Below, in pieces: positions 19,348-64,000 of a stretch of DNA of 64,000 nt. The notes beneath the pieces were generated by a model. That model was given only the letters and a program-made list of their open reading frames with translations, ran no database searches and was not told where the DNA came from. Location: the NCBI GenBank assembly GCA_038087875.1, contig CM075995.1, forward strand, positions 4,032,001 through 4,096,000, given 5' to 3'. The position numbers and the translations under genes were made by a program. Position 1 is the stretch's first letter. Each line of letters starts with the position of its first letter. This DNA is from Malacoraja senta. Its lineage: Eukaryota.

Positions 19348-19498
19348 CTGAGTATGTGGGCGAGAGAGAGGTTGATAGAGGGGGAGAGAGGGGAGAGGGG
19401 GGGAGGAGAGGGGGGTAGAGGGGGGTAGAGGGGGGTGGAAGAGGGGGGGAAAGGGGGGGGAGAGGTGGGGTAGAAGAGGGGGGGAAGAGGGGGGGGGG
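19212..19498 (+). repeat. Compound (CT)/(GT) microsatellite followed by a G/A-rich polypurine tract
   Basis: Seen directly in the sequence. Confidence 0.9.
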
Positions 19499-21677: not shown

Positions 21678-21741
21678 GGGAGAGGGAGAGGGAGAGGGAG
21701 AGGGAGAGGGAGAGGGAGAGGGAGAGGGAGAGGGAGAGGGA
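21678..21741 (+). repeat. (GGGAGA)n microsatellite between the two Tx1 copies
   Basis: About 10 perfect hexamer units. Confidence 0.95.
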
Positions 21742-22261
21742 GCGAGCTTTTTCAGCTCTGAAGTTGAGACGGATTGAAGCAGCTTTTCAAGGACTTTGTC
21801 GATGGGGAAGGAACAGAGGCAGAGGGGCTTCGTAGGTTAACTTATCATTGGACTGGTGAAACTCACCTCTGCTCTAGGAATCCTCCACGATTGTGAAGAT
21901 TCCTGAGATTTTGCTCCATTGTCGAGGGTGCGGTTGTCGTTGGTGGACTGCCAAGAGTGCCTGGAGATCGAGGGTATGAAGATTGTAGTGTTTTGTCATT
22001 TTTTTAGCACCGTTTCTCTGCCCTAAAGGCATTTTGCTCAGGCGGATGCCGGGCTTAATGTGAAGATGGTACTTTTGCTTCCGGCAAGACTGGGTTAGAG
22101 CTTCCCAAAAGCTGCTCTCGGCTGTGGACATATTTGGGGATTTTCTTGCTTCAGCTGGAGGCTTCTGATTTCTGCTACTTGCATTTGACTGTGACTGTCT
22201 GCGGGACTTAACGTGGAGCTGAGCTGCTGGGCTGACTGGAGCTGGTTGTGCCTCTGTCAGG

Positions 22262-24576: not shown

Positions 24577-24649
24577 TTTGGGGACTTTTGGGTGTTCCTC
24601 AGACAGAGAGTTGTTGTGTCAACGGGGAGTATGAGGGGTTTAATCTAGT

Positions 24650-27600: not shown

Positions 27601-28351
27601 CATCGGGCCAAGGCTCCGGGATATATCTCGGGCACCGGCTCTACACAACCTGAGCCGCCTTTCTGAGATGATCAGCATACCGTTTCGTGATACGAAGAGA
27701 CGCACACTGTATCGGATGTTCCTGCACATTCTGCACCTCCTTGCCTTTGTTTCCCGTCCTGACACACCTTGGAGGACGGTGTTACCACCTGAAGGCGAGG
27801 GAGGTCCCTGGTGGGGGTCCTTCTATAAGGGAGTTGTCCCCCTTTATATTGGGGACCTGGGGTGGAGACTGTTGCACGGAGCGGTGGTTTGTAATATACT
27901 TTTGAGTAGGTTCACGGGATCGTCCGCCGCGTGTATTTTCTGTGGCAAGGAAGAAACCGTGTTCCACGTATACATGGAGTGTGCGAGGCTACTGCCCCTG
28001 TACCAATATCTGAAGGGGTTGTTCCTCAAGTTCTGGTTGCATTTTAGTCCCACGATTCTAGTGTGTGGGCATAAGGCAGGGTGTGGGGAGAGCGAAGTGG
28101 GGGGGTGGGACCTCCCTGTTGGTTTGCTCCTGGGCCTGGTTAAGATGGCCATTCGTGGGTCCAGGCAGCGGGCGGTCGATGGTGAGGCTAGAGTTGGCTG
28201 CCTGCCCCTCTTCCGGGCGTACGTCCGTGCACGGGTGTCCCTGGAGCGGGAACATGCGGTGTCCACGGGGACTCTGGAGGCCTTCCGTGGGCGCTGGTCA
28301 CCACGTGGGGTTGAGAGTATAGTAAATAATGAATGTACTGTTGTACTATAA
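24650..28351 (+). pseudogene. Tx1 ORF2 (APE-RT-zinc finger), frameshifted
   Basis: ATLNLNG, FLQETH, NVYAP, GGDFNC, SRIDR, SDH; KSPGLDGLTVEF, KNWRPVSLL, LDQEKAFDRV, GVRQGCP, AYADDV; CIFCGKEETVFHVYMEC. Confidence 0.92.
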
Positions 28352-28944
28352 TGATTTGTTTTGATATAATGTATCTTTTGATTATGTATTGATGTGTTGT
28401 ATCATTGATTGTGTCGAATAAAATTTTGAAACTTTTTTTTTAAAAGAGAGAGAACATTAATTTGTTAACCCTGTTCTCAGACTGACTCTTCAAAGAGGTG
28501 ATTTTGGTGTTCATGGTGTTACAAAAGTTGTTGATGTATAACAAGATATAAATGTGTCTGCATGTTGTGCCCAGGAGCCTCTGGATGCACTTTTATCGAT
28601 ATAGTCAAGCTGTGCTGCAACTTCCCTGATACACTTCGTGCAAGCCAACTAAAAGCACAAAAATCAATTAGCGTAAATCCCAAGTGCTCCTACTTAAAGA
28701 ACTTTTTGTTCTATTTTGCTAAATTTGGATTCATATATTCTTGATTTCCCTCATGCTGCTTTCTCTGTATTACACCTTGGCATTTTGTTCTCCAACCTCT
28801 ACAACCCAGGTTAAAACATAGACAACATTGATCTAAGGGTGGGCCGTTGTCTTTAGTGAGATTCTATGTCAACTTATCATTATCTCCAGTTGGGAACAGA
28901 AGAACAATGGTTGAGAGCTTCAAGTAAAAAGTTAAGAGCCTCAA

Positions 28945-36315: not shown

Positions 36316-38658
36316 CAAAAACATTGTAATTAGATTTAATGGCATGTAATAATTGTGACACATTTCTCCATGGGGGTAACATCTGGCTTCCCAAGAAAAA
36401 GTATGGAAGCTAAAATTGTCACAGAGGCATTTTATGAGTTTGAGTTCCGTTCCTTTCCTTTCCTTCCTTGGGAGAGAATGCCTTTTAATTCTTAGTTCCA
36501 TCTAAACTATTTAATTCCAATTTATGTAAAAAATGCAATGTCTGAAATTAAGATGTTAATAAGTGACATTTTGCTTGTGTGGAAACTGCTGTAAATACCA
36601 CTTGATTACACTGCTCTTGAATTATTCAGCGTTTTTAATAACCCTCGCAGCTTATCATTCCTATAGCCTGGTATTTCCATCCTTTTTTAATTAGCTATCA
36701 CCGCCATATTGATACGTCTGACAGCTTTGTCATGATTATAATGCTAATATTTTAGCAAATTTTATTATTTCAGTTATGGGACCTGCAGATGTCGTTTGGT
36801 GATGTGGTTACTCTGGTCCAGAAAAAATCAACCCAGTCGAGCCGAGTTATGCATTGCTCAGACCGCCCATTCATTTCTACAGTCACTGCATTCTGTCATA
36901 CAAAGCACACCCTATTAATGATTTCCCAGCCACTGTCTGTTAACAAGCCAGGGCATTTTGCTAATGATCAAACTCACCAAGAAGGGCTTTATTGACACTG
37001 TCAGAACTACTTGCTGTCTCAGCGGTAATACCAAACAGCTGTACAGAATGCATAATCTCTGATGTGCATCTGCGTCTGCATATTAAACAGAACACACCAA
37101 ATTAAATGAAGGGATATAGGAGGCAGAGAAGCAACCTTTTCTGCTATTTACATCTTGGTTTTTTTTGCTGGATATTCACCCATGAGGAAGGGAGGGAGGG
37201 AGGGAGAGGGAGGGAGAGGGAAGTATTATGAATGTGAGCCTGATACAACACGCTGGCATACAGTTTGCAGTGTGTCCATGTTTGCTCTTGTTAACAGATC
37301 ATAAGGTTGTAATTGATAGTAGAATTAGGCCATTCGGCTCATCAAGTCGACTCTGCCATTCAATCATGCCTGATCTATCTCTCCCTCCTAACCCCATTCT
37401 CCTGCCTTCTCACCATAACCTGACTCTTGTACTAATCAAGAATCTACCAATCTCTGCTTTAAAAATATCCACTCACTTGGCCTCCACAGCCTTCTGCGGC
37501 AAAGAATTCCACAGATTCACCACCGTCTGACTAAAGAAATTGCTCCTCATCTCCTTCCTAAAAGAACGTCCTTTAATTCTGAGGCTATGACTTTTAATCC
37601 TAGACTCTCCCACTAGTGGAAACATCCTTGATCCTAGTGGCAGGAGTTGAGAGGGATAGATAGATCTGAAACGGCGGAGTAGGTTCGATGGCACACATGA
37701 CCTAATTCTGCTCCTATGACTAATGAACTTATAAAAACACAGATACTCAAGTGGTGGGTTTAAATTAATTGTATGTGAACAGTACAAGCTGAGTAGATCA
37801 CATCCTCAAAGAACTGGTATAATTAGAGAAGAATCTTCCAATGCAAATTGGATATCCCTACGCACACACATATTTTACATCTTCCCATTGTGTGCTTAAC
37901 AGTTAGTATGGGTGGCTGGTAATAATCTACTTAATTTCCACTTGTCACTTGCTTTCATTATCACCTTCACTTCTCCTCAGCATGTTTCGCCCAAGAGCAT
38001 GTATCTTAACACATTTTGTTGACAACTATAAACCTGTCAGGCAAGGAGGCCAATTATTATTGACAACTTCACACTGAGGCGATGTGCAAGGCAAGGTCTT
38101 TTGCACAGAGAGCGGTGAGTGCTGCCAGGAGTGTCTTGGAGAGCAGGAGACTAAGAACTGTATAAGATCTTGAGGGGAATAGATAGGGTAAATGCACAGA
38201 GTATTTTACCCAGATCAGGGGAATCAAGAATCAGAGGACATAGGTTCAAGGTGAAGGGGGGGGGGGGGGAGTGGGAATTTAATAGGGGATTCATTTAAAT
38301 GGAATTGGGGCAACTTTTTCACACGGAGCGTGGTGGGCATACAGAACAAGCTGCCAGAGCAGATAGTTGACGCAGGTACTATAACATGTAAAAGAGATTT
38401 GAAGAGGTAGATGGATAGGAAAGATTTAGTCTGAAGAAGGGTCTCGACCCAAAACATCACCCATTCCTTCTCTCCAGAGATGCTGCCTGTCCCGTTGAGT
38501 TACTCCAGCTTTTTGTGTCTATCAGGGTTATAACAAGGCTAGGTGGGACTTGTGTAGATGGGGAATCTTGGTCAGCATGGGAAAATTGGGGCTAAGGGCC
38601 TGTTTCCATGCTGTATGACTATAACTCTATGATCTGCAGGGAATGGAGAGATATGCAT

Positions 38659-38858
38659 NNNNNNNNNNNNNNNNNNNNNNNNNNNNNNNNNNNNNNNNNN
38701 NNNNNNNNNNNNNNNNNNNNNNNNNNNNNNNNNNNNNNNNNNNNNNNNNNNNNNNNNNNNNNNNNNNNNNNNNNNNNNNNNNNNNNNNNNNNNNNNNNNN
38801 NNNNNNNNNNNNNNNNNNNNNNNNNNNNNNNNNNNNNNNNNNNNNNNNNNNNNNNNNN
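38659..38858. other. Assembly gap (200 N)
   Basis: Run of N. Confidence 1.
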
Positions 38859-41800
38859 GACCATCCAAAATGAATCACTCTGATGTACTGGCCCCAGATC
38901 TAGAACACACAACTTCTGGCATATCCATTTTTGGAAGGAATGAGATTGTTATTTTGAAAAGTAGATGAGTTCCTAAATATTTTTACAAATATATTTCATT
39001 GCATTGTTTTGTTTTGTTTAGTTCAGAGATACAGCATGCTTGGCCCATCGAAGTGGGAGGAAACGAAGATCTCGGAGAAACCCATGCAGGTCACGGGGCG
39101 AATGTGCAAACACAGACAAGCCCCGTAGTCAGCATCGAACCCGGGTCTAAGGCAGTAGCTCTACCGCTACGCCACCGTGCTGCCCCCAAAACATTGTAAT
39201 TAATTTAATGGCATGTAATAATTGTGACACATTTCTCCATGGGGGTACATCTGGCTTCCCAAGAAAAAGTATGGAAGCTAAAATTGTCACAGAGGCATTT
39301 TATGAGTTTGAGTTCCGTTCCTTTCCTTTCCTTCCTTGGGAGAGAATGCCTTTTAATTCTTAGTTCCATCTAAACTATTTAATTCCAATTTATGTAAAAA
39401 AATGCAATGTCTGAAATTAAGATGTTAATAAGTGACATTTTGCTTGTGTGGAAACTGCTGTAAATACCACTTGATTACACTGCTCTTGAATTATTCAGCG
39501 TTTTTAATAACCCTCGCAGCTTATCATTCCTATAGCCTGGTATTTCCATCCTTTTTTAATTAGCTATCACCGCCATATTGATACGTCTGACAGCTTTGTC
39601 ATGATTATAATGCTAATATTTTAGCAAATTTTATTATTTCAGTTATGGGACCTGCAGATGTCGTTTGGTGATGTGGTTACTCTGGTCCAGAAAAAATCAA
39701 CCCAGTCGAGCCGAGTTATGCATTGCTCAGACCGCCCATTCATTTCTACAGTCACTGCATTCTGTCATACAAAGCACACCCTATTAATGATTTCCCAGCC
39801 ACTGTCTGTTAACAAGCCAGGGCATTTTGCTAATGATCAAACTCACCAAGAAGGGCTTTATTGACACTGTCAGAACTACTTGCTGTCTCAGCGGTAATAC
39901 CAAACAGCTGTACAGAATGCATAATCTCTGATGTGCATCTGCGTCTGCATATTAAACAGAACACACCAAATTAAATGAAGGGATATAGGAGGCAGAGAAG
40001 CAACCTTTTCTGCTATTTACATCTTGGTTTTTTTTGCTGGATATTCACCCATGAGGAAGGGAGGGAGGGAGGGAGAGGGAGGGAGAGGGAAGTATTATGA
40101 ATGTGAGCCTGATACAACACGCTGGCATACAGTTTGCAGTGTGTCCATGTTTGCTCTTGTTAACAGATCATAAGGTTGTAATTGATAGTAGAATTAGGCC
40201 ATTCGGCTCATCAAGTCGACTCTGCCATTCAATCATGCCTGATCTATCTCTCCCTCCTAACCCCATTCTCCTGCCTTCTCACCATAACCTGACTCTTGTA
40301 CTAAATCAAGAATCTACCAATCTCTGCTTTAAAAATATCCACTCACTTGGCCTCCACAGCCTTCTGCGGCAAAGAATTCCACAGATTCACCACCGTCTGA
40401 CTAAAGAAATTGCTCCTCATCTCCTTCCTAAAAGAACGTCCTTTAATTCTGAGGCTATGACTTTTAATCCTAGACTCTCCCACTAGTGGAAACATCCTTG
40501 ATCCTAGTGGCAGGAGTTGAGAGGGATAGATAGATCTGAAACGGCGGAGTAGGTTCGATGGCACACATGACCTAATTCTGCTCCTATGACTAATGAACTT
40601 ATAAAAACACAGATACTCAAGTGGTGGGTTTAAATTAATTGTATGTGAACAGTACAAGCTGAGTAGATCACATCCTCAAAGAACTGTATAATTAGAGAAG
40701 AATCTTCCAATGCAAATTGGATATCCCTACGCACACACATATTTTACATCTTCCCATTGTGTGGCTTAACAGTTAGTATGGGTGGCTGGTAATAATCTAC
40801 TTAATTTCCACTTGTCACTTGCTTTCATTATCACCTTCACTTCTCCTCAGCATGTTTCGCCCAAGAGCATGTATCTTAACACATTTTGTTGACAACTATA
40901 AACCTGTCAGGCAAGGAGGCCAATTATTATTGACAACTTCACACTGAGGCGATGTGCAAGGCAAGGTCTTTTGCACAGAGAGCGGTGAGTGCTGCCAGGA
41001 GTGTCTTGGAGAGCAGGAGACTAAGAACTGTATAAGATCTTGAGGGAATAGATAGGGTAAATGCACAGAGTATTTTACCCAGATCAGGGGAATCAAGAAT
41101 CAGAGGACATAGGTTCAAGGTGAAGGGGGGGGGGGGGGAGTGGGAATTTAATAGGGGATTCATTTAAATGGAATTGGGGCAACTTTTTCACACGGAGCGT
41201 GGTGGGCATACAGAACAAGCTGCCAGAGCAGATAGTTGACGCAGGTACTATAACATGTAAAAGAGATTTGAAGAGGTAGATGGATAGGAAAGATTTAGTC
41301 TGAAGAAGGGTCTCGACCAAAACATCACCCATTCCTTCTCTCCAGAGATGCTGCCTGTCCCGTTGAGTTACTCCAGCTTTTTGTGTCTATCAGGGTTATA
41401 ACAAGGCTAGGTGGGACTTGTGTAGATGGGGAATCTTGGTCAGCATGGGAAAATTGGGGCTAAGGGCCTGTTTCCATGCTGTATGACTATAACTCTATGA
41501 TCTGCAGGGAATGGAGAGATATGCATTATGTGTAAGCAGAAGAGATTATTTAAACATGGCATCATGGGCATTGAGGGCCGAAGGGTCTTATATTGTGTTG
41601 TATTGTTTTACGATCTATGTTAACTCTACAAAATAATCATGCTTATCTAGATTTCATTTGTTTTTATAAGACTAATTCTGACTGCAATGATAATTTACAA
41701 TGAGTTTATTTTTCATAGAATCTATCATAAGATGATCATTTACGATCTTGAAAAACATCGAATTAAATAATGTAAATATGTGATGCATTAGCACGATGAA

Positions 41801-43639: not shown

Positions 43640-45025
43640 AAGGTACACAAAAATGCTGGAGAAACTCAGCGGGTGCAGCAGCATCTATGGAGCGAAGGAA
43701 ATAGGCAACGTTTCGGGCCGAAACCCTTCTTCAGACTGATAGGGGGTGGGGAGAAGAAAGGAAAAAAGGAAAAAGGCGGAGGAGGAGCTTGAGGGCTGGG
43801 GGAGTGGAGGAGACAACCAGAGGGCTGATGAAGGGGAGGGGACAGCAAGGGCTAGCAGAATTGGGAGAATTCAATGTTCAAGCCCCCAGGATGTAGACTG
43901 CCCAAGCGGAATATGAGGTGCATTTCCTCCAATTTACGGTGTTGCTCGCTGTGGCCATGGAGGAGACCCAGGACAGAGAGGTCAGATATGGAATGGGAGG
44001 GGGAGTTGAAGTGCTGAGCCATCGGGAGGTCAAGTTGGTTATTGCGGACCGACCGGAGGTGTTCGGCGAAACGATCGCCAAGCCTCCGCTTGGTCTCACC
44101 GATGTAGATCAGCTGGCATCTAGAGCAGCGGATGCAATAGATGAGGTTGGAGGAGATGCAGGTGAACCTCTGTCGCACCTGGAACAACTGCTTGGGTCCT
44201 TGAATGGAGTCGAGGGGGGAGGTGAAAGGACAAGTGTTGCATCTCTTGCGGTTGCAAGGGAAAGTACCAGGGGAGGGGGTGGTATGGGAGGGAAGGGAAG
44301 AATTGACAAGGGAGTTACGGAGGGAGCGGTCTTTGCGGAAGGCAGACATGGGGTGAGATGGGAAGATGTGGCGAGTGGTGGGGTCACGTTGGAGGTGGCG
44401 AAACTGACGGAGGATCACTTGTATGTGACGGCTGGTGGGGTGAAAGGTGAGGACTAGGGGGACTCTGCCCTTGTTGTGAGTGGGGGGATGGGGAGAGAGA
44501 GCAGTGTTGCGGGGTATGGCAGAGACCCTGGTGCGAGCCTCATCTATGGTGGAGGAGGGGAACCCCCGTTCCCTGAAGAATGAGGACATTTCAGATGCCC
44601 TGGTGTGGAACGCCTCATCCTGGGAGCAGATGCGGCGTAGACGGAGGAATTGGGAGTGGGGTATGGAGTCCTTACAGGAAGCAGGGTGGGAAGAAGTGTA
44701 GTCCAGATAGCCATGGGAGTCGGTGGGTTTGTAGTGGATGTTGGTAAGAAGTCTATCACCTTCGATGGAGATAGTGAGGTCAAGGAATGGTAGGGAAGTG
44801 TCGGAAATGGTCCAGGTGTATTTGAGTGCCGGATGGAAGTTGGTGGTGAAGTGGATGAAGTCAGTCAGTTGTGTGTGGGTGCAGGAGGTAGCACCAAAAC
44901 AGTCATCGATGTAGCGGAGGTAGAGGTCGGGGATGGGGCCCTGGTACGCATTGAACAAGGATTGTTCTACATACCCGACAAAGAGGCAGGCGTAGCTGGG
45001 GCCCATGCATGTGCCCATAGCTGTC
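43640..45025 (-). mobile_element. Penelope-like element, 5'-truncated: RT C-terminal part, GIY-YIG endonuclease and 3' terminal repeat with a hammerhead-like motif
   Basis: ORF 43852-45084: TAMGTCMGPSYACLF, RYIDDCF, PFLDLTI, NLIYCIRC..YIGETKRRLGDRFAEH, HPGGLNIEF. Confidence 0.92.
43705..43737 (-). ncRNA. Minimal hammerhead ribozyme-like motif in the PLE terminal repeat
   Basis: CTGAAGA-A-GGGT(TTCG)GCCC-GAAAC-GTT provides the CUGANGA box, stem II hairpin, GAAA box and short palindromic stem III. Confidence 0.65.
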
Positions 45026-45067
45026 CTGCTACATACCTGTCTAGCTATCCAGGTATGTAGCAGGACA

Positions 45068-45441
45068 GTTGGCGGGACTGTCATATGAGGAAAGATTGAA
45101 AAGACGGCTTGTATTCACTGGAGTTTAGAAGGATGAGGGGTGAACTTATGGAAACATATAAATGTTTCTCACCTCATTTAAGACTGAGGTGAAAAAAAAC
45201 GTTTTCACCCAGTTGTGAATTTGTGGAATTCCCTGCCACAGAGGGCAGTGGAGGCCAAATCACTGGATGGATTTAAGAAAGAGTTAGATAGAGCTCTAGG
45301 GGCTAGTGGAATCAAGGGATACGGGGAGAAGGAAGGCACGGATTATTGATTGGGGACGATCAGCCATGATAACAATGAATGGCGGTGCTGGCTCAAAGGG
45401 ACGAATGGCCTCCTCCTGCACCTATTTTCTATGTTTCTATG
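45068..45441 (+). mobile_element. CR1 LINE 3' fragment
   Basis: Similar to 18300-18567. Confidence 0.8.
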
Positions 45442-49290: not shown

Positions 49291-49543
49291 TCTCCCGCGA
49301 GAAAATGAACGCGGTCGCGGGGAGAACGTACAAACTGTGCAAACAGCCCCCGTAGTCAGGATCGAACCTGGGTCTCCGACGCTGCAAGCACTGTAAGGCA
49401 GCAACTCTACCGCTGCGCCACCGTGACCGCCTTCATAAATGAAATGATCCATCTCAGGCAACACTTTGGTGAATCTGCTCTGCAGCCTCTCCAGTGCAAT
49501 GATATCTTTCCTAAGGTGAGGCAACCATAAAAATTGAGAAAGG

Positions 49544-50478
49544 TGTAGGGGTTTTGGTTCCCTTCACTTCGGGCCCAACTGCCCGATAAAGAGGTTCCCC
49601 TGGGTTCTAGACCTCGGAATTATGGTGGGATATGATAAAAAATTGACTTGACCAGAGCGTGCTGATGAGAGAAAACAGAAACCAAGACGGGCTCAAAGCA
49701 AGTCTAAAATTTACAGGCTTTATTAAACAATGAGAAATCGAATCTCACCAACACTACATAATACATGACTAAACTTATGCTTTAAACTAAGACTATGGAA
49801 AGAAAATTATCGGGCACGTCGTAAAACTTACTTTACACAATTTTACAAATACACCCCCTTTCCCCTTCTTCTCTCAACCTCTATCCTATTTTCGGGAACT
49901 TCACCAGGTCGTCTGGGGTACTTACAGCTAGATTGATGCAGGGTCAGGAGTCATCCAACAGAGCAGAAAAGAGAGCGAAACCTTCCTTGACTGTCCTTTT
50001 TTATACCTGAGTTTCTCCCTTGAAACCCCCCAGGTGGTCCTCTGGACAAAAGTGCCTTTCGATGATTCCCAGTTTCGATCTGGCATGAACAATAGGCTTC
50101 CGATGATAATGGGTTTGGTGATGTCACGATGCCTCAGCCTGATCGTTATCCCATCACCTGGATGGGCTCCGATTGTCCCGATGGATGCGTCATCCACGAT
50201 GATGATTGCGTTGCTGCTGGGCTGTTTACCCCCGTCTGCTGAGGCTCGGTTCCTTCCTTTGTCTTTCCAAGATAATCTCGTTATCTCCGTCCCGGCCTTT
50301 CCTGTTCACACCATTCGCATAGTCATGTAATACCCAGGCCCACAGACAGGTTTTAAACTGGTTCTTCCTTTGTGGATTGTTTTTTTTTCCTTTTGCAGCC
50401 AGCATGTCCGTTTTAAAATGTCCAGGTCCTTATCCCCGAGTTCTTCCATAATTTGAGGATTTGCCACAATAGCTTACA
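49544..50478 (-). repeat. 3' LTR of provirus
   Basis: Same length as 59337-60271 and roughly 95% identical by eye; minus-strand TATAAAA at 49999-50005 and AATAAA at 49719-49724. Confidence 0.95.
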
Positions 50479-50794: not shown

Positions 50795-52080
50795 TCAGGC
50801 GGCTCGATTTACCAGCTGTTGTAATTTGGTCATCCTCCTCCGCCTTTTAAATTTGCAATTAATGCATAGCAAATACACTACAATTATCATCTGGCAGATG
50901 ATCAGAACATGGGACACGATGCGGGCCCATGCTGGAACTATGATCCAGGACTCCAGGACTCCAGGTCCCACCAACTTGGAGACTTGATTTCTTCGATCTC
51001 CCTGGCGATATCCAGTGTCTTTTGTTCCAGGGAGAAGAAGTGTTTGTGCGACAACTCGACCGCCGCCAGCAACTCTTTTAATTTTTCCTTCACTGGGGGA
51101 ATATCATACCCGAAATGGGCCACATAGTTAGATAAGTCCGTTACATTTTCTCGTACCGAGAGGTGAACCGAAGAAGGTTCCGGGATGGGTAATTTTCGCT
51201 GCTGTGCCACATGGACTTCTGCCCTGGGTTTAAAACAGAAGCTGCTGTGTGGTATCGGGCACCACAGCTGTGATCCGTGCTGATACCGCTGGGCACTTGT
51301 GGTGACACAGTATGTCCCACTGCTTATATACGCCACCTGTGGAGGGACATGGTCTGCCGCCATCGCCTCCATGGTACAGTTTATAGGCTGTGCCCCAACA
51401 GTCCTGAACCCACACTGAGGCCTAGCCTCGGCGCCCATGTGCTCCCCGGCTCCGACAACCCAAAAGGTCAATGCCTGTCACAGCTTGCTCCCTCACTATG
51501 ACATAAGGCGGGACCTTCCTGTAGCGAATATGCACCCCCCCCCCCACGAACAACTCCCACGTTCTCCACTCGGTACAGAGGAGCTGGTAGTGCCGAGGTT
51601 CCCATCACCGGGATTCTTACGACCACTCCCATTATAGTGTGATTGGACTTTCCACAATCCACCGGTACTGGGTAGGCCTCGGAGGCCACACGAAGCTGAC
51701 AAGGACTCAAAGTGCTGTTATAAGGGTGTAGCGCTGCTAGGTGCTGGTTGCTTATCCAGGAGGGGACCCGACCTTGCCTCAGGTCTTCCAGGTTGCTCCT
51801 CCCCTCCCCCAACAACCACGCACCATACAGCCCACACACCTCATTCTGTGCAGCCTGATCGGACGCATTCCGGTCCTCTTTAATCAAAGCGTTTATCGTT
51901 TTTGCATGTGTCTCCAATTGTGCTATGATTTCATTTAGATGTAGAGTCATTGCCACCTCGTCGTGCAGCCCCGATCCTACCACCGCATTTTCCTCCCCCA
52001 GAACCTCGTTGCCATCATCCATACGGCGGGGCTACCCATCTGGGAAACAAAGCAAAACACCTCCTTGCCTCCACATCGCT
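50795..52080 (-). pseudogene. env: env: class I fusion glycoprotein-like, disrupted; 5' boundary uncertain
   Basis: Lies between IN and the 3' LTR. Contains a heptad segment (LHLNEIIAQLETHAKTINALIK), a Cys-rich beta region, N-glycosylation sequons (NAS, NST, NHT, NCT, NVT), a second heptad (LEQKTLDIAREIEEI) and W-rich SWWDLESW. Removing an 8-bp duplication (50945-50960) restores TM IVSHVLIICQMIIVVYLLCI, a basic stop-transfer KFKRRRR and a stop at 50795. Confidence 0.85.
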
Positions 52081-52354: not shown

Positions 52355-55300
52355 TCATAACTGGTCCCCGTCACGCTGGGGCCACCCCTCTGGCGGGCCC
52401 ACCCGTGCAGGCCAGAACTCCTCCTGTCGAGGGGTCTGACTGCCCCTCACCTCCCTTTGCACTACGGGGTTTCGAGATACCCCTACGTTCCCTGCGGAGA
52501 CTGGGCTCCCTCCAACCGCACTCCGTAGTGCCCTGTTTCGGTCATTCTCCTTCCCGGCCCTCCTGTGGCCGGCCCTAGCCCTAGGTTTGATTAGGGATGG
52601 GGACCACCTTACTGGGGGTTTAGTGACCCTGTTACTCCTGTGTCTGACCGGGGGCTCCCACACCAGAGGTGATACCTCCATCTCCTCTGCTTCTGCCAGT
52701 TCTGCCTCTCTTAGGCAGTCTACGGTACCTGCCTGCGGAGGGCTGGAATCAGCATCCTTCCCCGCTGCTTCCAGTCCTCACCCTGGGACACAGCAGGCTA
52801 CTTCAGGCTGACTACCTGTGGGCTCGCCTGGCTCCCCTACGGTTTCCACATCAACCCGGGTCTGTTCTTGATCCTGTTCCCTGACATGTACCACTTTCTT
52901 ACTTTTCCCTGCCATTGTGGGGTCGAACAATTTACACTGGTTGATGTGGAACTATTTGACTCTATGGGGAAGCTGAATGGCATACACCATGGGACTGGCC
53001 TTGTTCACTATGTTGTATGGGCCAGCATACAAGGGTTCGAACACCCCTACCCTAGCATATCTCCTGACCATTACCTGGTCCCCCACTGCCCACTCGCAAT
53101 GCCTCCGAGGCTCCAGTAGTAGCTTGTTTCTTTGGTGCTGGGCCCCCATGTTTCTGGCTGCCTGCCAGTGAACCTGCCTAAGTTGTTCAAATAGCCCCTT
53201 GGCGAACTTGTCCCGGTTCACTTCCCTGAGCTGTCCCTCTGTTAAGGCTGGGACCATAACGTGCATGGGCGTTCTCATGACCCGGCCCGTCATAAGCTCA
53301 TGGGGAGAGTACCCCGTACTCCTGGACTGGCTGGCCCGAATCCCCATAAGGACCAGGGGTAAAACCTCCACCCACAGGTTGGGTGAGTCCCCTGTTTCCT
53401 TCCTTATCCTTTCCTTTATTGTCCGGTTCAACCGCTCTACTGGACCTGAGGACTGGGGGTGGTAGACCACATGCCACTTGGCCTTGATGCCCAGTATTCT
53501 AAGGGTGGACTGCATGACCTGTCCCGTGAAATGGCTCCCCTGATCTGACTCCACGAACTGTGGGAGTCCCCACCGGGTGAACACCTCCCTAACCAGGATT
53601 TTTGCCATACCCTATGTACAGTTATTCCTAGATCCTTCTGTTCAACTGCATTCCTCAATTCTCTACCATTTACCATGTACGTCCTATTTTGATTTGTTGT
53701 GCCGAGATGTAGTACCTCACATTTATCAGCATTAAACTCCATCTGCCATCTTTCAGCCCACTCTTCCAAATGGCCTGAATCTCTCTGTAGACTTTGAAAA
53801 TCTACTTCATTATCCACCACACCACCTATCTTAGTATCATCTGCATACTTACTAATCCAATTTACCACACCATCATCCAGATCATTGATGTACATGACAA
53901 ACAACAGTGGACCCAACACAGACCCCTGAGGCACCCCACTAGTCACCGGCCTCCAACCTGACAAACAGCCATCCACCATTACTCTCTGGCATCTCCCATT
54001 CAGCCACTGTTGAATCCATCTTGCTACTCCACCATTAATACCCAACAATTTAATCTTCTTAACCAACCTTCCATGAGGAACCTTGTCAAAGGCCTTACTG
54101 AAGTCCATATAGACAACATCCACTGCTTTACCCTCATCAATTTCCCTAGTAACCTCTTCGAAAAATTCTAGAAGATTAGTCAAACATGACCTTCCAGGCA
54201 CAAATCCATGTTGACTGTTCCTAATCAGACCCTGCTTATCCAGATGCTTATATATATTATCTCTAAGTATCCTTTCCATTAATTTGCCCACAACTGACGT
54301 CAAACTAACAGGTCTATAATTGCTAGGTTTACTCTTAGAACCCTTTTTAAACAACAGAACAACATGCGCAGTACGCCAATCCTCCGGCACTATTCCCGTT
54401 TCTAATGACATTTGAAATATTTCTGTCATAGCCCCTGCTATTTCTACACTAACTTTCCTCAATGCCCTCGGGAATATCCTGTCAGGACCTGGAGACTTAT
54501 CCGTTTTCATATTTTTCAAAAGTGTCCGCACCTCTTCTTTGAATCTCATAGTTTCCATTGCTACTCTGCTTGTTTCCCTTACCTCACATAATTCCATATC
54601 CTTCTCCTTGGTGAATACCGAAGTAAAGAAATTGTTCAATATCTCCCCCATCTCTTTTGGCTCTGCAGATAGCTGTCCACTCTGACTCTCTAATGGACCA
54701 ATTTTATTCCTTGTTATCCTTTTGCTATTAATATAGCTGTAGAAACCCTTTGGATTTACTTTCACCTTACTTGCCAAAGCAACCTCATATCTTCTTTTAG
54801 CTTTTCTAATTTCTTTCTTAATATTCTTTTTACATTCTTTATACTCCTCAAGCACCTCATTTACTCCATGCTGCCTATAATTATTGTAGATCTCTCTCTT
54901 TTTCCGAACCAAGTGTCCAATTTCCCGTGAAAACCATGGCTCTTTCCAATTTTTACTATTTCCTTTCAAACGAATAGGGACATAAAGATTCTGTACTTAA
55001 AATGTTACCCTTAAATGTCCTCCATTTCTCTTCTACATCCTTCCCATAAAACAACATGTCCCAATTCACTCCTTTTAAATCCTTTCGCATCTCCTCAAAG
55101 TTAACCTTTCTCCAATCAAAAATCTCAACTCTAGGTCCAGTTCTGACCCTCTCCACCTTCACTTTATGGATATATCTATCCCCGCCCTTCCCTACGGCTG
55201 CTACAATCCTCTCTAATAGGGGTTTAGTGGTCAGGGGCTTCCCGTCCGATCAGGTGTACCCTCGGCGGGACCAGATGGCCAGATATTCCGAGCAGGAATT

Positions 55301-57449
55301 GAATGTGAACATGCTGTCCGAACATATGGTGTATGGGGGGGGGAAACGCTCGGGATGGGTGATCACGTACATTACCGCCGCCAGCTCGGCCTGCTGGGTG
55401 CTTAACGTATGTGGGAGTTTAAGGGCTAGGGCTATCTCCGCCTCGGGGTCCCAGATCCCACAGCCCGTGAGCCTTATGCCCTCGGTCACGATACTGGACC
55501 CGTCCACGTATATTTCCCTACCCGTGGGATGTAACCCTGCTCTGCCCAAAGTCCACCTCCCATACCCCTTCCACCGAGCAATGGTGTGGCTCCCCTGGGT
55601 ACACCAAATTGGCTGCGAGCTTGGGCTCGCATAGCCTCTCAACCCGTAAGGCTATTTGGGAAAGGAGAAGAGTCCAGCGAGTGATCCTCGCACTGCTAAC
55701 GGTCCCATCCTTAATCCGACCGTCCAGCAGCATCTGGGTTGGGGTATGGTGGGTCAGGAGGGTGATGGGGGACACTCTTATGAAGACCTGTACCCTCTTC
55801 ACTGCCCAGTATGTGGCTAGCAGGTGCCGCTCACAGTTTGAATAGGACCTTTCTACCTCTGTGAGGACTCTGGAGGAATACACCACTGGCCTTAACTTGC
55901 CGTGCCGTTCCTGGAGGAGCACTTCGCCCAGGCCCTCTTTGCCTGCGGCTACCTCCAGGAAAAATTCCTCCCTGTAGTCGATGGCTCCCAGAGCTGGGGC
56001 CTTTTGCAGGTCCCGCTTCAAATGGACGAAGGCCGACTCGCACTGCTCATCCCACTCCCACTCTACCCCTTTGCGTAGCAGCCGGTGCTGCGGTCACGGC
56101 ATAGTCCTCTATAAAGTCTCGGCAGTAGCCCATGACTCCCAGAAATGACCTTACCCCCCCCCCCCCACGTCCGCTGGGATTGGGAGTTCCTGCACTGCCT
56201 GCCTTCTTGCTGTATCGATACCCCTTTCTCCGGCCCTAAGGGTCAGTCCCAAGAACTTTACCTCTTGTAACCCTATCTGTGCCTTCTTGGGATTTACTTT
56301 TAAACCGCTCTTACAGAGCAGCTCCAGCAGTTCGTTTACTAGGGGCCCATGTTCCTCACTGGTGTCCGTGAATAGCAAAATATCATCCACATACTGGACG
56401 ATCTTGTGGGGCTCACTGAATTCCTTTAAACATTCCGCCATACATTGGTGGAAAATACTGGGGCTATTGTGGAACCCTTGGGGAAGACAGTTCCACGTGT
56501 ACTGCTGCCCCTTGAATGTGAAAGCAAATTTGTACTGGTCTTCCTTCCTGACCGGGATAGACCAGAAACCGTTCGCGATGTCTAGCACCGTAAATACAGA
56601 TGCAGACGCCGGAATTTCCTCTAATAGGTCTGCTACGGCTGCCACAGTTGGTGCGCAAGCCGGAATGTTCTTATTCAGGACCCTATAATCTACCGTGGCC
56701 CTCCATGAATTGTCTGGCTTCCGTATGGGCCAGAGCGGTGAGTTCACATGGGTGGTTATGGGCCTCAAAACGCCTTGCTTAACCAGTGAACTCAGGGCGA
56801 CTTCTAAGTCAGCCTCCGCTTCTCGGGGAAACTATACTGTTTCTGCAGTCGGGACATGGGATCCCCGTCTATCCTGACCTCTGTTCCTGTGACCCTTCCA
56901 CAGTCATGCTTGTGAGTAGCGAATGCGGCCAAATTTTGCTTAACATGGCCTCGATACTCTGTCGGGGTCTGCCTCACTAGGGCCTCTACATCGTACCACT
57001 CTCTGGGCTTCACAACACACAGAGCCCCTCTCTCTGGTGCCCTCTCGATGACCATTACCTCCTTCTCTCTCTCAGCCCCTTCTCCTGCTATGCCCCACAA
57101 ACAGTGGTTCCTCAGGTCCACCAGGACCTGGTGGGCCACTATAAAGTCGGCGCCTAGTATCCCCTTTCCCTCCTACTCCCAACTCATCAGGACACACTTC
57201 CACTGTGCCTGGAGTGCTCCTAATCGAATGGACAAGGGAACAGAGAAAAACCCCGTCTTCTCATTTCCTGTAAAACCGACAAGACTATAGGGCGCCCCAC
57301 TAGATAGAGGGGATGTACGGGGATGGTACTGGAAGCACCTGTGTCCAGCAGGTAACTCCCGACCACATCCTGGACCTCCATCTTGACCCAGGGTCTCCCA
57401 CATGGGCATACTGTAACGGGCATAGGAATGTGGGCTGTTTTGCTGGCAG
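52355..57449 (-). pseudogene. pol: pol polyprotein: protease, RT, degenerate RNase H, second RNase H, integrase; frameshifted and interrupted by CR1
   Basis: LLDTGAS (PR); SPLWPIRKPD, VLDIANGFWSIP, LPQGFHNSP and YVDD (RT, 56151-56768); RPVVYSSRVLTEVERSYS..ERHLLA (RH1, 55518-56021); YVDGS..AELAA..SDS (RH2, about 55160-55515); SDQGSHF..HPQSSGPVERLNRTIK..GPY (IN, 52952-53608). The frame continues through stops to the RSNRVTKPPVRW tail at 52355-52681. Confidence 0.92.
53612..55160 (-). mobile_element. Internal CR1 LINE ORF2 fragment nested in proviral pol
   Basis: ORF 53437-54969 has KSPGPDRIFPR, NYRPVSLTS, DFSKAFDKVPH, GVPQGSVLGP and YADDTK; it is nearly identical to the CR1 at 7.3-8.0 kb and has no 3' tail. 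Confidence 0.93.
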
Positions 57450-59334
57450 TCATAAAGGTGCCGGGGGTGCGGATACGGGCGCGCGCTGGCCTGTTGCCAT
57501 GGCTACCTGTCCGGACCCTCCAGCCTTGGACTGCAAATAGGCCAATAGATCTTTTACATCTATTGTTCCCGGCACGGCCGCTCCCTCGTCCGGGGCTGGG
57601 TCGGCTGTTACCGGGGTCCTATCCTCCACTGCTCTACTTGGGTTTCTGCACTCCCTCTTGTAGTGCCCTGGTTTCCCACACCCGTAGTACGCCGGCCTCA
57701 TCTCGGAAGAGGTCCGGTTGCCTTCCTGTTTCCACTGCCTCCTTTTGGGGGGTGCCGGTGCTATATTGTGCACCTTGCCCTTAAAGGGCTTCTCCTCACT
57801 TCTCTCCCCGTTGCGATAAGCAAGGGTGAGCTTCCTTATTACCTCCGCCTCGTTAAGGCTTGGGTCCGCTGGGTCGAACCAGTGCTCGGCCTTTGCCCTA
57901 ACTCGCGGGATGCAATTCGCTACCAAAGTCTTCAGCCAGTGGGCTGTTCTCTCATCTAAATTCCGCCTAGCTAAAGGCGTTCCACACGCTCCCTCATACA
58001 CTGCCCACAGTCTGTCTGCGAACATGTCCGGGGACTCAGCTACCTGCTGCTTCGTATCCCCCACCCTGGCGAAAGGACTACCCTGATTCAACCCCATGGT
58101 CTCCAGAACCGCTGTCTGTGCCGCTACCCATGTTTCAGGTCTTCCCCCTTCCCTGGAGGTCACCGCCTTGCATAGGTAGGAATCCAGGGTCATCAGTAGT
58201 AGCTTTACCCGTTCTACCTCATCGCAATCATTTATGTCGGCTGCCTGCTGCACCTCCATAAAATGCAATGACGGGTCTCCCGCCCTGGTTAACCTGGGAA
58301 CGTAAGCCACCATCCCCCTCAGCACGTGTGCCCCATGGGGAATGATGATATCACTCTCTATGGGCCCCCTATCTGCCTGCCCTACCGGGGGACCATATTT
58401 CCTTTGCCGTACTGGGCACATCTGCCCTTCCCGGATGTTGCCCCTTTACCCCCTGCTCTCCCACCATGATCGGTAACCCCACCACCTCGTGGTGTGCTAC
58501 ACATGGCGCAGACGCCGCTAACTGAGGGTGCTCTTCCGCCCCTCCTTGGGTCTGTCCCTTCCCGGACAACCCGAACCCCACCTGCCGACCCGGACCTATT
58601 CCCGGCGCCTCAGGAGGCGGTCTATTCCTCTTTGCCCCTGGGGAATCACATGCTGAGGGAAGCCCTCTGCCCCTGGGGGACCCCCCTGGTCCTACCAGGT
58701 GAACCCGTCCCCTAGTCTTGGACAGAGTCTCCTCCAGCTGCGCTACCCTTGCCTGGCAAGGCCCATGATCACAATCCCCTTGCTCGCTATGGGCCACCCT
58801 GTATGCTGCTTGGATATCTTGGAACTTTCACTCCAGCTCCCTGTATCTCTGTGTACTCTGAGCCAGGCGTTCCTGGGTATTCCGCTCCCTCTCCTTTGCC
58901 TCTACTGCCTGACATTGGAGGAATTCCTGGGCATTTCTGTGGGACTCCCTAGCCTGCAAGATACACTGCCTGGCTACACTGAGTTCCTCACATAGCCCTT
59001 CCCCTTCTCTAGCGCTTTCCTCAGCACTGGCCCTAGCTATTCTCAGTTGCTCTTCTAGACTCTCTACCTGTCTCTCCATTTTGGCTACCTGCTGTGATAG
59101 GCACGCTAGCCGAACTGCCTTTTCCTTCCCTATATTATAACCTTTACTTTCAGTCCATTCTGCTGCAGCTGCTGCGGGCTGCTGTGCTGTCAAAAGTGCT
59201 ACCACCCATTGTTTGGTGAGATTGATCTTTTTAAACAGATAAGAGGAGATTCTCTCCTCCATCTTGCTACGTTCTCTCACCCCCTCTGGCAAGTCACATA
59301 TCCCAAACCACCGAGGTCCTGCCATGGTCGCCAT
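57450..59334 (-). pseudogene. gag: gag: N-terminal coiled coil, capsid-like region and CCHC zinc knuckle; broken into several ORFs
   Basis: ORF 58828-59334 is heptad- and Glu/Arg-rich; ORF 58369-58797 follows; ORF 57450-58421 contains YYGCGKPGHYKREC (CX2CX4HX4C with the first C mutated). Confidence 0.85.
59316..59333 (-). promoter_or_regulatory. Primer binding site, tRNA-Arg(TCG)-like
   Basis: TGGCGACCATGGCAGGAC lies 3 nt inside the 5' LTR boundary. It matches 16/18 of the complement of the vertebrate tRNA-Arg 3' end GTCCTGCCGCGGTCGCCA (recalled, not searched), and both mismatches fit CpG decay. Confidence 0.75.
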
Positions 59335-59336
59335 TC

Positions 59337-60271
59337 TGTAGGGGTTTTGGTTCCCTTCACTTCAGGCCCAACTGCCTGAAAAAGGGGTTCCCCTGGGTTC
59401 TAGACCTCAGAATTATGGTGGGATATGATAAAAGGTTGACTTGACCAGAGCGTGCTGATGAGAGAAAACAGAAACCAAGACGGACTCAAAGCAAGTCTAA
59501 AATTTACAGGCTTTATTAAACAATGAGAAATCGAATCTCACCAACACAACATAATACGTGACTAAACTTATGCTTTAAACTAAGACTATGGAAAGAAAAT
59601 TATCAGGCACGTCGTAAAACTTACTTTACACAATTTTACAAATACACCCACTTTCCCCTTCTTCTCTCAACCTCTATCCTATTTTTGGGAACTTCACCAG
59701 GTCGTCTGGGGTACTTACAGCTAGATCGATGCAGGGTCAGGAGTCATCCAACAGAGCAGAAAAGAGAGCGAAACCTTGCTTGACTGCCCTTTTTTATACC
59801 TGAGTTTCTCCCTTGAAACCTCCCAGGTGGTCCTCTGGACAAAAGGGTCTTTCGATGATTCCCAGTTTCGATCTGGCATGAACAATAGGCTTCCGATGAT
59901 AATGGGTTTGATGATGTCACGATGCCTCAGCCTGATCGTTATCCCATCACCTGGATGGGCTCCCATTGTTCCAATGGATGGGTCATCCACGATGGTGATT
60001 GTCTTTGCTGCTGGGCTGTTTACCCCCGTCTGCTGAGGCTCGGTTCCTTCCTTTGTCTTTCCAAGATAATCTCGTTATCTCCGTCCCGGCCTTTCCTGTT
60101 CACACCATTCGCATAGTCCTGTAATGCCCAGGCCCACAGACAGGTTTTAAACTGGTTCTTCCTTTGTGGATGGGGGGTTTTCCTTTTGCAGCCAGCATGT
60201 TCGTTTTAAAATGTCCAGGTCCTTATCCCCGTGTTCTTCCATGATTTGAGGATTTGCCACAATAACTTACA
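59337..60271 (-). repeat. 5' LTR of provirus
   Basis: Direct repeat of 49544-50478; minus-strand TATAAAA at 59792-59798, GTAAGT at 59713-59718 and AATAAA at 59512-59517; adjacent to the PBS. Confidence 0.95.
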
Positions 60272-60699
60272 AAGGAGAGGAGAAGGTTGATTTAGTCAGA
60301 GGGTGGTGACTCTGTGGAATATAATGCCACAGACGGCTGTGGACGACGTCAGTTCAGTTCCGTTCAGTTTTGCTTATTGCCACATGTACCAAGGTGTTTG
60401 TTGCGTGCTATCCAGTCAGCAGAAAGACAATACATGATTACAATCGTGCCATTTATAGTGTATAGATACAAGATAAGGGAATAACGTTTAGTGCAAGGTA
60501 ATAGCAACAAAGTCCAATCAAGAATAGTCCAAGGGTCATCAAAGAGGTAGGTTGTAGTTCAGCACTGCTCTCGGGTTGTGGTCGGATGATTCAGTTGTCT
60601 GATAACTGTCCCTGAATCTGGTGGTGTGCGTTTTCACCTTTTGCCTGATGGGAGAGGGGAGAAAAGGGAGTGGCCAGGGTGCGACTCATCCTTGATTAT

Positions 60700-60972: not shown

Positions 60973-63914
60973 TTAAACAAAATCGCCATAGCGGTCAGGC
61001 GGTTTGACAAGACGTCCCGCCCGGGTTCGCGTCTCACCATCCACCCTTCCTGCAGGAGGAAGAGGCACCGGCGGGGACAGACGAACCTGAAAGGGGGAAA
61101 CGGGAGGAGACGGAGGAGACCGCGGCACCGAACCCGGAGGTGATGCGAGATCAGGACCGGGAAGAGCGCGGGCAGGCGAGCGAGGACTAGTCAGAGCGGG
61201 GTGGAACGGAAGGGGCTGAGGAGGAGCAGAACGTTGCATGTCAGGAAGGACGGGCAGAGCAACGCCCTGACGCGAAACAGGCAGTGGGGGAGCAAAGGGA
61301 TCCGCGGCAGGAGGACGCGGCTCGTTGACGAGCCGAAGGTGCTGGCGGGACCGTCGGTAAATGGCTCCAGCGTGGTCGACGAGATAGGACCTGGGCGACC
61401 CCGCAGAGCCGACGACGGTAGCGAGCTTGGAGTGACCGGGAGCGGTCTGCATACGGACAACTTGACCGGGGAAGAGGCGCGGCAGCGGGTGGCAGGACCT
61501 GTCATGGGAACGCTTTTGGACGTCGTGCCTGAAGGCAATGCGTTTCTGAACTGCCGCAGGTGGGAGGATGGAGGGTATGAGGGAGCGCTGGGCCACAGGG
61601 AGCGGGAGTCTGGTAGCGCGAGACATGAGCCGCTGAGCAGGTGAACCCATGGCAGAGTCGCGGGAAATGTTCCGAAGGTTGAGGAGGGCCAGATGGAAGT
61701 CGGAGTTAATGCCACCACACTGTTCCAACAGGTGCTTCGCGCTGCGGACTGCGCGCTCGGCCAAACCGTTGCTTTGCGGGTACTCCGGGCTGCTGGTGAA
61801 ATGGCGGAAGTTCCATCTGGAAGCGAACGCTTTAAACTCGGAGCTCGTGAACTGGCTGCCATTGTCCGATTGCAGGCTTGCCGGGGGGCCAAAAGTGCCA
61901 AAATGAGGGTACAACCTATCGATGATGGCCGAAGAGGTTATGGAATGCAGCCGGTCGACCACAAACCAGCTGGAGTAGGAGTCAACGAGAACCAGGAAGT
62001 GTTTGCCCCGCCACTCGAAAATGTCGGCGGCAAGCGCCATCCAGGGCAGTTCGGGCGCGGGCTGCTGCAGAAGCGGCTGACGCTGCTGGTGGGGGGCGAG
62101 GCTGTTGCAGGTGGAACACGAGGAGACCCTCTCCCGGATGTATTTGGCCATATCCGGCCAATAGAACTGGCTCCTGGCGAGAGACACGGTGGCTTCGGCC
62201 CCAGGATGACCGCGGTGAGCGACTTGAAAATAGTGGTCGTGCAGCGCCGCGGGCACGACCACCTTGTGACCCTTCACCACCACGCCGTCATGCAGTACGA
62301 GCTCGTCACGGACCAGGAAGTAGGGCACGGCACCAACCGGCAGTGCCGAACGACGGTCAGGCCAGCCCTGCCGGATGACGGCAGACAGCTGTTGCAGGGC
62401 AGGGTCATTGGTAGTGTGTTCAACCAGGGACTTCATCTGCTGTGAGGGGACGATGTTCAATTGTAGCACCAATAGCTCAGACATTTCATATTGGTGGCGA
62501 GCGGTGGACGTTAGCGGGGCGCGAGACAACGTGTCGGCCACGAACATGTCCTTGCCCTTACGATAAACCACCGTGAACGTGAAGCGCTGGAGCTGCAGCA
62601 TCATGCGCTGCAGGCGTGATGAGGCCACATGGATCGACTTGTTGAGGATGGTGACAAGTGGCTGATGGTCAGTCTCAACGGTGAAAGTGTTGCCCACGAT
62701 GTAGTCCCGGAATTTGGAGCAGGCAAACACCACGGCCAGTAGCTCCTTCTCGATCTGCGCGTAGTGCTGTTCGGTGGCGGTCATGGTGCGGGACGCGAAG
62801 GAGACAGGCAGCTGCAGGCCGTCATGGACCTGGAGACAGGCGGCACCGAGTCCGAACTGAGAGGCGTCGCAGGTGAGGACAATGGGACGCTGCAGGTCAA
62901 AGAACTTGAGCGTGGGGGTGCTGATCAGCTTAGACTTAAGAATGTCGAATGCCTTCTGATGGTTGGGTAACCAAAGCCAGGACGTGTCCTTTTTTTTACC
63001 AGATCCCTCAGGGAAGCGCTGAGCTCGCTGAGGTCGGGGATGAACTTCCCCAGGTAGTTTACCAAGCCTAGGAAGCGTTGCAGGCCTGCCACATTGGTAG
63101 GAGGGGGCATCCCTGAAATGGCAGCCGTTTTCTGCGGGTCTGGCTTTAACCCCTCAGCGGTGAATACATGTCCAACATAGGTGACCTCCGGGACGCGGAA
63201 TCGGCACTTCTTGGGGTTCAGTTTCAAGTTGATTTGCCGGGCCCGGTCCAGGACCTGGCGGAGGTTGACATCGTGTTCGGCAACGTCCTTACCGTAAACG
63301 AGGATGTCGTCAACAATTATGGCGCAAGGTAGACCTAAAAACAACTGCTCCATTGTCCACTGAAATACCTCGCTGGCAGAGTTGATTCCGAATGGCATTC
63401 GGAGGAACCGAAACCTTCCATAGGGGGTGGCGAAAGTTGTCAAAATGGACGACCGCTCGTCCAGTGGTATCTGCCAGAAGGAGCTTTTGGCATCGAGGAC
63501 AGAAAAAACCGTTGCTGGACCAACCTGTGCAGCGACTTCTTCCACCGTTCTCATAGGGTAGTGACGGCGTCTAATGGCCAGGTTGAGGTCTTTGGGGTTG
63601 ATGCAGATGCGTATCTCGCTCATGTCCTTTTTAGCAGCAACAACCATGGAAGAGACCCAGCTGGTGGGCTCGACGACCGCCTTTAGGATGCCCATTTGTA
63701 CCATACTGTGTAGTGTCGCCTCCACTCTGTCCCTCATGGCGAAGGAGACACGGTGAGGAGCATGGACCACAGGAACGATCTTACGGTCCACTACAATCTT
63801 GTAGCTGCAGGGTAGTTTGCCTAGCTTATCATCAAAGCGGTCGGGATAATCGGCCAGCGGGTCCATAAGAGTCTGCACCTGGTGGATGTCACGGTGGAAG
63901 TACACCAGTCCCAT
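60973..63914 (-). pseudogene. pol: Gypsy pol (RT-RNase H-integrase) with a frameshift at the T-run near 62990
   Basis: VLDAKSSFWQIPL, RMPFGINSASEVFQ, IVDDILVYG; YAQIEKELLA..TDHQPL; HRGHPG..CSTC; SDNGSQF; PQSNGLAERAVR. Confidence 0.92.
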
Positions 63915-64000
63915 TTCCTGGCATGCCCGGATCCCCAGCAGGGGAATGCATTTTTGATCGAGGAGATAGAAGGTGAGGGGCCGAGAGGTCTCTAGTATCT

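Follow-up and report, generated by a model that had tools for sequence, protein, structure and literature searches.

Two tandem RNase H-type domains, RH1 and RH2, lie on the minus strand of the window (the whole 64,000-nucleotide stretch of Malacoraja senta DNA analysed here), and the stretch that they occupy is very probably the reverse transcriptase-connection-RNase H part of the pol gene of a defective SnRV-like endogenous retrovirus (class III, clade Huo). Both domains were found where a sequence-only reading had placed them, inside the pol of a broken 10.7 kb element with the order gag-pro-pol-env (Table 1). Such a tandem is the normal layout of retroviral pol, real but ordinary, and Gypsy-like tethers have already been published for lokiretroviruses and Odin elements, as far as the accessible sections of those reports go. 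In their accessible text, two of these reports describe a tether followed by an RNase H as general for retroviruses (PMC7947760, PMC9040795), and the same annotation is given for a frog class III endogenous retrovirus in the available part of PMC8278194.

The element has the layout of Retroviridae, with gag, pro, pol and env bounded by long terminal repeats (LTRs). The LTR pair is identical at 896 of 933 aligned bases (96%, K2P 0.041), a distance that, combined with two rates quoted in the accessible portion of PMC4422223, gives a very rough age of 9 to 93 million years. The closest relative, P0001, runs from protease to integrase in one frame and is 70-80% identical to the window copy from the reverse transcriptase onward. 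Residues 749-965 of P0001 are unmatched in the window, where a LINE piece that we take to be of CR1 type occupies the site of about 217 missing pol codons, namely the end of RH2, the integrase zinc finger and the first part of the integrase core. The order of pol was found to be reverse transcriptase, a tether lacking DEDD, an RNase H with DEDD (its fourth acid read from relatives) and integrase.

Table 1. Features of the provirus and of the neighbouring Gypsy element (positions are those of the window)
Feature	Position	Strand	Remarks
Target site duplication AAGG, 4 bp	49540..49543; partner 60272-60275	.	flanks the provirus
3' LTR	49544..50478	-	TG...CA ends
env remnant	50864..52007	-	three frames; hydrophobic anchor at the C terminus; resembles an F protein in a language-model lead
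Integrase, second half	52952..53632	-	Pfam and P0001 match
LINE ORF2 piece, presumably CR1 type	53612..55153	-	95% to the LINE copy at 7323-8036
RH2, retroviral RNase H	55154..55546	-	frame differs from that of RH1; interrupted by the stop at 55250-55252 and lacking its 3' end
RH1, connection/tether domain	55518..56093	-	open frame without catalytic acids; Pfam, solved-structure ranks and alignment
Reverse transcriptase, YVDD	56151..56831	-	PF00078 E 3e-37; best solved match foamy virus reverse transcriptase
Protease and start of reverse transcriptase, broken	56819..57349	-	tblastn P0001 residues 15-191, 51%
gag, capsid-like part and zinc knuckle	57450..58445	-	zf-CCHC at E 0.0046, short of the cut-off
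gag, 5' part, coiled-coil-like frame	58828..59361	-	weak coiled-coil Pfam matches only
Primer-binding-site-like stretch	59316..59333	-	starts TGG three bases past the 5' LTR; assigned from position
5' LTR	59337..60271	-	935 bp, TG...CA ends
Separate Gypsy element	60973..63998	-	one intact RNase H; internal control

RH1 had been described as Gypsy-like and devoid of the usual acidic residues, and this was borne out at the residue level. The domain matched PF17919 (E 4.9e-24, 84.7 bits) and PF17917 (E 6e-21) and carries EVAA, HLLA and THH at the DAS, ELLA and TDH sites of Gypsy RNase H (55947-9, 55824-6 and 55749-51), with Ala, His and His in the three catalytic positions and the fourth-acid motif also missing. 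Among solved structures the MuLV connection domain (3.1e-07, 33.5 bits) ranked above the Ty3 RNase H (5.3e-05, 26.2 bits) by a small gap, and a single-sequence fold of RH1 reached a pLDDT of 41.3, too poor for fold comparison. Judged from these sequence matches, RH1 is an ordinary, finished retroviral tether, catalytically dead and with a Gypsy-derived RNase H fold. It is not unusually Gypsy-like, because tethers with lokiretrovirus motifs reach 95.9 bits on PF17919 against the 84.7 of RH1. The tethers of the RH1 clade stay closer to Gypsy than the MuLV tether does. The Gypsy element at 61-64 kb, which had been singled out as a comparison with a single intact domain, does have an RNase H with DAS, EKELLA and TDH, and gave no PF00075 match.

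RH2 (55157-55546, the stop read as X) was recognised by another model, PF00075 (E 3.7e-11, 43.8 bits against a cut-off of 25.8), so that each of the two parts answers to a profile of its own, and its best solved match was the MuLV RNase H. The retrovirus-type motifs YVDGS, AELAA and SDS, which the sequence-only reading had named, are present and supply the catalytic Asp, Glu and Asp; the fourth acid is visible in relatives, and the window copy is cut before it. That reading had missed three breaks: RH2 does not share the frame of RH1, it contains the in-frame stop at 55250-55252, and it is severed at about 55154 by the LINE piece, upstream of its last catalytic motif. The damaged domain in the window copy is therefore RH2, with its frameshift, stop and LINE cut, and not RH1, and a working pol is impossible from this copy.

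The loss of acids in RH1 is common to the family. RH1 was matched in 215 of the 216 sequences surveyed, of which 40 were too short at the end to be classed for RH2. A downstream RH2 was found in 20 sequences (19 of them reliable, P0008 being a misaligned row), and in these RH1 kept none of the three acids in 15 and one in five. Another 155 sequences had no RH2, and 141 of them kept all three acids, eight kept one or two, and six kept none. The six proteins without any of the three acids and without a detected RH2 run counter to the SnRV-like reading. The fourth-acid motif was absent from all 20 RH2-bearing rows (the misaligned P0008 among them), whereas 130 of the 156 intact rows of full length had it. 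Relatives with a dead tether followed by RH2 include those of bullfrog, Xenopus, coelacanth, bowfin, turtles and an eel, three turtle relatives retaining Glu as their one RH1 acid. P0001 has the same RH1 residues as the window, with RH1 and RH2 in a single frame, and in three relatives the identity to P0001 was 49-51% for the tether, 56% for the reverse transcriptase and 35-39% for RH2.

Four of the 21 public sequencing runs listed were also compared with the window. The three RH1 sites were unaltered by any difference listed in the four runs, with one silent third-position change and two rows unseen, and one X7 contig covers all three sites and has its 11 differences elsewhere. Differences exclusive to X21, the more distant run (21 reads), fell at third codon positions in 17 of 22 cases (p 3e-5), and those private to the window did so in six of 12 (p 0.18). 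The RH1 tether is thus under purifying selection, a constrained domain whose present copy in the window drifts. The proposal that RH1 is decaying is contradicted, because the losses are common to relatives, the domain is constrained and the tether is better conserved than RH2. It is extremely improbable that the RH1 losses are post-insertion decay of one copy, or that RH2 is a chance insertion; the window copy is badly damaged and differs at 12 places from what runs X3 and X7 show, but the sites are unaltered by the differences listed in the four runs, both domains are in one frame with the same residues in P0001, and relatives share the losses.

The reverse transcriptase bears on what kind of element carried the two domains. 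Against solved structures its best score was with foamy virus (E 3.5e-43), followed by MuLV (1e-33) and Ty3 (2e-26). For the tree, all 14 dead-tether rows and 30 of the 107 intact rows were taken from 124 usable rows, three two-acid rows being left out. In the resulting 46-row tree 15 dead-tether rows stood apart from 31 intact-RNase-H rows (100/98), and the window fell within a 13-row clade (100/99) split from two rows with lokiretrovirus motifs (100/99). The latter (P0173 and P0169) were recognised by motifs identical to those in the published alignment, not by name, and the tree, like the integrase tree below, was built without SnRV, foamy virus or MuLV sequences. Structure ranks and tree agree in placing the reverse transcriptase closer to retroviruses than to Ty3/Gypsy.

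This bears on the proposal that RH1 is a tether precursor, still decaying within a Gypsy-type element. The strong scores of RH1 on Gypsy-type profiles and the Glu retained in turtles are in its favour, but we consider it highly improbable: the reverse transcriptase is of retroviral kind and groups with none of the 31 intact-RNase-H rows, the best solved match of RH1 is the MuLV connection domain, the losses are common from frog to coelacanth, and RH1 is constrained and more conserved than RH2. What stands of the tether proposal is a dead Gypsy-derived fold ahead of a cellular-type RNase H; what falls is the halfway stage, as the tether is already finished. Membership of Ty3/Gypsy (Metaviridae) was rejected, since the single intact DEDD RNase H of that group was not found and the reverse transcriptase lies outside Gypsy.

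Placement beside SnRV is likely, as suggested by search ranks and by motifs compared by eye. The reverse transcriptase, RNase H and integrase of SnRV, in published rows, have motifs in common with the window family. For the clade as described in the accessible sections of the literature, these are PTVA, LPQGFH.SP.IFHQ and QYVDDILL in the reverse transcriptase, YLA.W.RRG in the RNase H and, in P0001, PMG..R..EGP.Q in the integrase. SnRV-like endogenous retroviruses have been reported from the elephant shark (PMC4422223) and the coelacanth (PMC4977317), and the clade, which includes CmiERV lineage I, from all vertebrate groups (PMC6001957, PMC12193657), again in the accessible portions of these papers. 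CmiERV-I of the elephant shark resembles the window provirus in its size near 9.6 kb, its LTR divergence of the same order and its host group (PMC4422223, available text). The likeness to the clade is drawn from motifs and published descriptions. A scan of viral contigs with the reverse transcriptase returned five pattern matches, none of which was confirmed.

Were the element a lokiretrovirus, it would be the first known from a cartilaginous fish and would widen the host range of that group (none of 6 chondrichthyan genomes had one in the accessible part of the original survey). The tether with RNase H, the F-like env lead and the coiled-coil 5' frame would all be compatible with this reading. 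Nevertheless, we hold this to be very improbable, given a reverse transcriptase that lacks the RWPM, PFGY and PAEFN motifs of the published lokiretrovirus alignment, is 33-35% identical to the lokiretrovirus-motif rows against 49-52% to its own clade, and is divided from those rows by starred branches.

The integrase and env gave a less uniform picture. In an integrase tree built from 13 dead-tether rows and 25 of 95 other rows, with no canonical integrase anchors, 12 family rows grouped with two lokiretrovirus-motif rows (93/84, below the bar for a starred branch). The env search matched one protein among 1504 candidates, and the window env is 82% identical to a Pristiophorus japonicus protein, a match that points to a shark or ray as host. 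The nearest clusters to the env relative P0226 in the ESM Atlas were Fusion_gly (PF00523; 0.92, 201 of 256 features) and Baculo_F, against a background in which a value of 0.9 is attained with shuffled proteins in four to ten cases per 100, and by predicted structure it was nearest Baculo_F at a TM of 0.58, under the bar of the tool. By eye, P0226 has an RQRR site followed by about 385 residues and no adjacent CC. It had no Pfam fusion match and no PDB sequence match, its single-sequence fold (pLDDT 34.6) was too poor for fold comparison, and the window's own env piece gave no usable match in the ESM Atlas. The env thus looks like a paramyxovirus or baculovirus F protein as far as these model-based comparisons suggest. 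Both the integrase grouping and the F-like look of the env count against the SnRV-like reading.

The same observations would suit a separate basal lineage of retroviruses, different from both SnRV proper and the lokiretroviruses, with a class III reverse transcriptase, a lokiretrovirus-like integrase, an F-like env and an ordinary tether. We regard such a lineage as improbable, however, since the integrase support stays below the bar in a tree without canonical integrases, the SnRV integrase has motifs in common with the family, and P0226 matched neither Pfam fusion families nor PDB sequences. A related suggestion, that the SnRV-like family itself joins a canonical retroviral reverse transcriptase to a lokiretrovirus-like integrase and an env resembling the paramyxovirus/baculovirus F protein, is tentative and rather unlikely. 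The Env of foamy virus has been shown to be F-like, and an F-like env in class III would accordingly be less surprising. No report pairing SnRV with a paramyxovirus-like env was found in the open-access literature searched, and the accessible text of PMC9447858 (NYNRIN) holds nothing on the SnRV-like clade; this type of env may already have been described in a survey of anamniote env genes.

Several known systems resemble the SnRV-like provirus in part. MuLV and foamy virus have the same domain order and supply the best solved matches of the reverse transcriptase, RH1 and RH2, although RH1 in the window is nearer the Gypsy profile. Unlike the gag of spumaviruses, which lack a zinc knuckle, the window gag has a zinc-knuckle-like motif, and the CX6CC of gamma-type env was not seen in P0226. 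Lokiretroviruses (PMC7947760) and Odin (PMC9040795) have, in the accessible sections, a Ty3-like tether (32% and 27%, respectively) before a new RNase H, and lokiretroviruses also have a published F-like env; the integrase appears to be similar as well; lokiretroviruses differ in reverse transcriptase motifs and clade, and Odin, found in sea anemones, differs in its reverse transcriptase motifs and has no env. An Odin retrotransposon was ruled out by the env remnant and these motifs. Plant Tat retrotransposons (PMC4408406, available text) likewise have a degenerate native RNase H ahead of an added one, but this is convergent, and the added Tat domain is of archaeal type with Arg where the window relatives have His (KVKAH, KVKGH).

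In the live ancestor the genome would have been copied by the reverse transcriptase, and RH1, as a non-catalytic connection domain, may have held and oriented the RNA/DNA hybrid and positioned the downstream RNase H, RH2 presumably doing the cutting of RNA. The role proposed for RH1 comes from the literature, where the tether is described as orienting the substrate (PMC4408406, accessible section, citing HIV-1 structures).

As given, the RH1-RH2 finding matters little, as a dead tether precedes the RNase H in every retrovirus. Canonical tethers were judged too diverged for phylogeny in the accessible part of PMC9040795, and the family described here is a source of slowly evolving ones (49-51% identity between P0001 and frog and other members). 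The env and integrase lead deserves separate attention, and only the unusual env may merit a second look. An F-type env, if real, would raise the importance of the family, as the accessible literature treats an F-like env as a mark of lokiretroviruses against canonical retroviruses. If the lead is true, the ancestor shared by lokiretroviruses and canonical retroviruses would already have had a tether, an RNase H, a lokiretrovirus-like integrase and an F-type env, the F-type env would be no lokiretrovirus-specific capture, and this would settle the choice between the scenarios for the origin of env that the accessible text of PMC7947760 and PMC9040795 leaves undecided.

The LINE piece that stands in pol of the broken provirus replaces about 650 bases of that gene, and it shares 95% identity over 714 bases with a LINE copy at 7323-8036. 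The non-LTR element is presumably Tx1-like, and the RT-like frame is one that we take to be Penelope-like. Part of the non-LTR element occurs again about 6.7 kb away (88-98% identity). The tandem duplication represents either a recent duplication or an assembly artefact.

Features of the provirus and of its surroundings in the window
Feature	Position	Strand	Remarks
Non-LTR element	19400-28400	+	zinc knuckle, endonuclease and RT frames
Tandem duplication	36500-41500		near-perfect, period ~2.87 kb
RT-like frame	43852-45114	-	GIY-YIG-like motif at its end
Env remnant	50864-52007	-	three pieces matching P0226
Integrase	52952-53632	-	groups weakly with lokiretrovirus-motif integrases
LINE piece	53612-55153		3' end cut; stands in pol
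Coiled-coil frame	58828-59361	-	its ATG directly after 5' LTR

The env pieces are 60-82% identical to P0226, a protein of the Japanese sawshark which, judging from the ESM Atlas, looks like a paramyxovirus/baculovirus F protein. No counterpart of P0226 residues 1-69, the portion holding the cleavage site, was found in the window. At the other end of the provirus, the ATG of the coiled-coil frame overlaps a primer-binding-site-like stretch, so that no leader is left before it; the frame is reminiscent of the 'smc' frame which some lokiretroviruses reportedly have. In a turtle subgroup (P0085, P0107 and P0114) the dead tether, the RH1 connection domain of pol, has kept its Glu and lost the other acids.

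In the tree, the integrase of this probably SnRV-like family and those labelled by motif identity with the published lokiretrovirus alignment formed one weak group (support 93/84). Relatives carry the database names 'NYNRIN-like' or 'Gypsy integrase-like', and the clade is therefore widely mislabelled.
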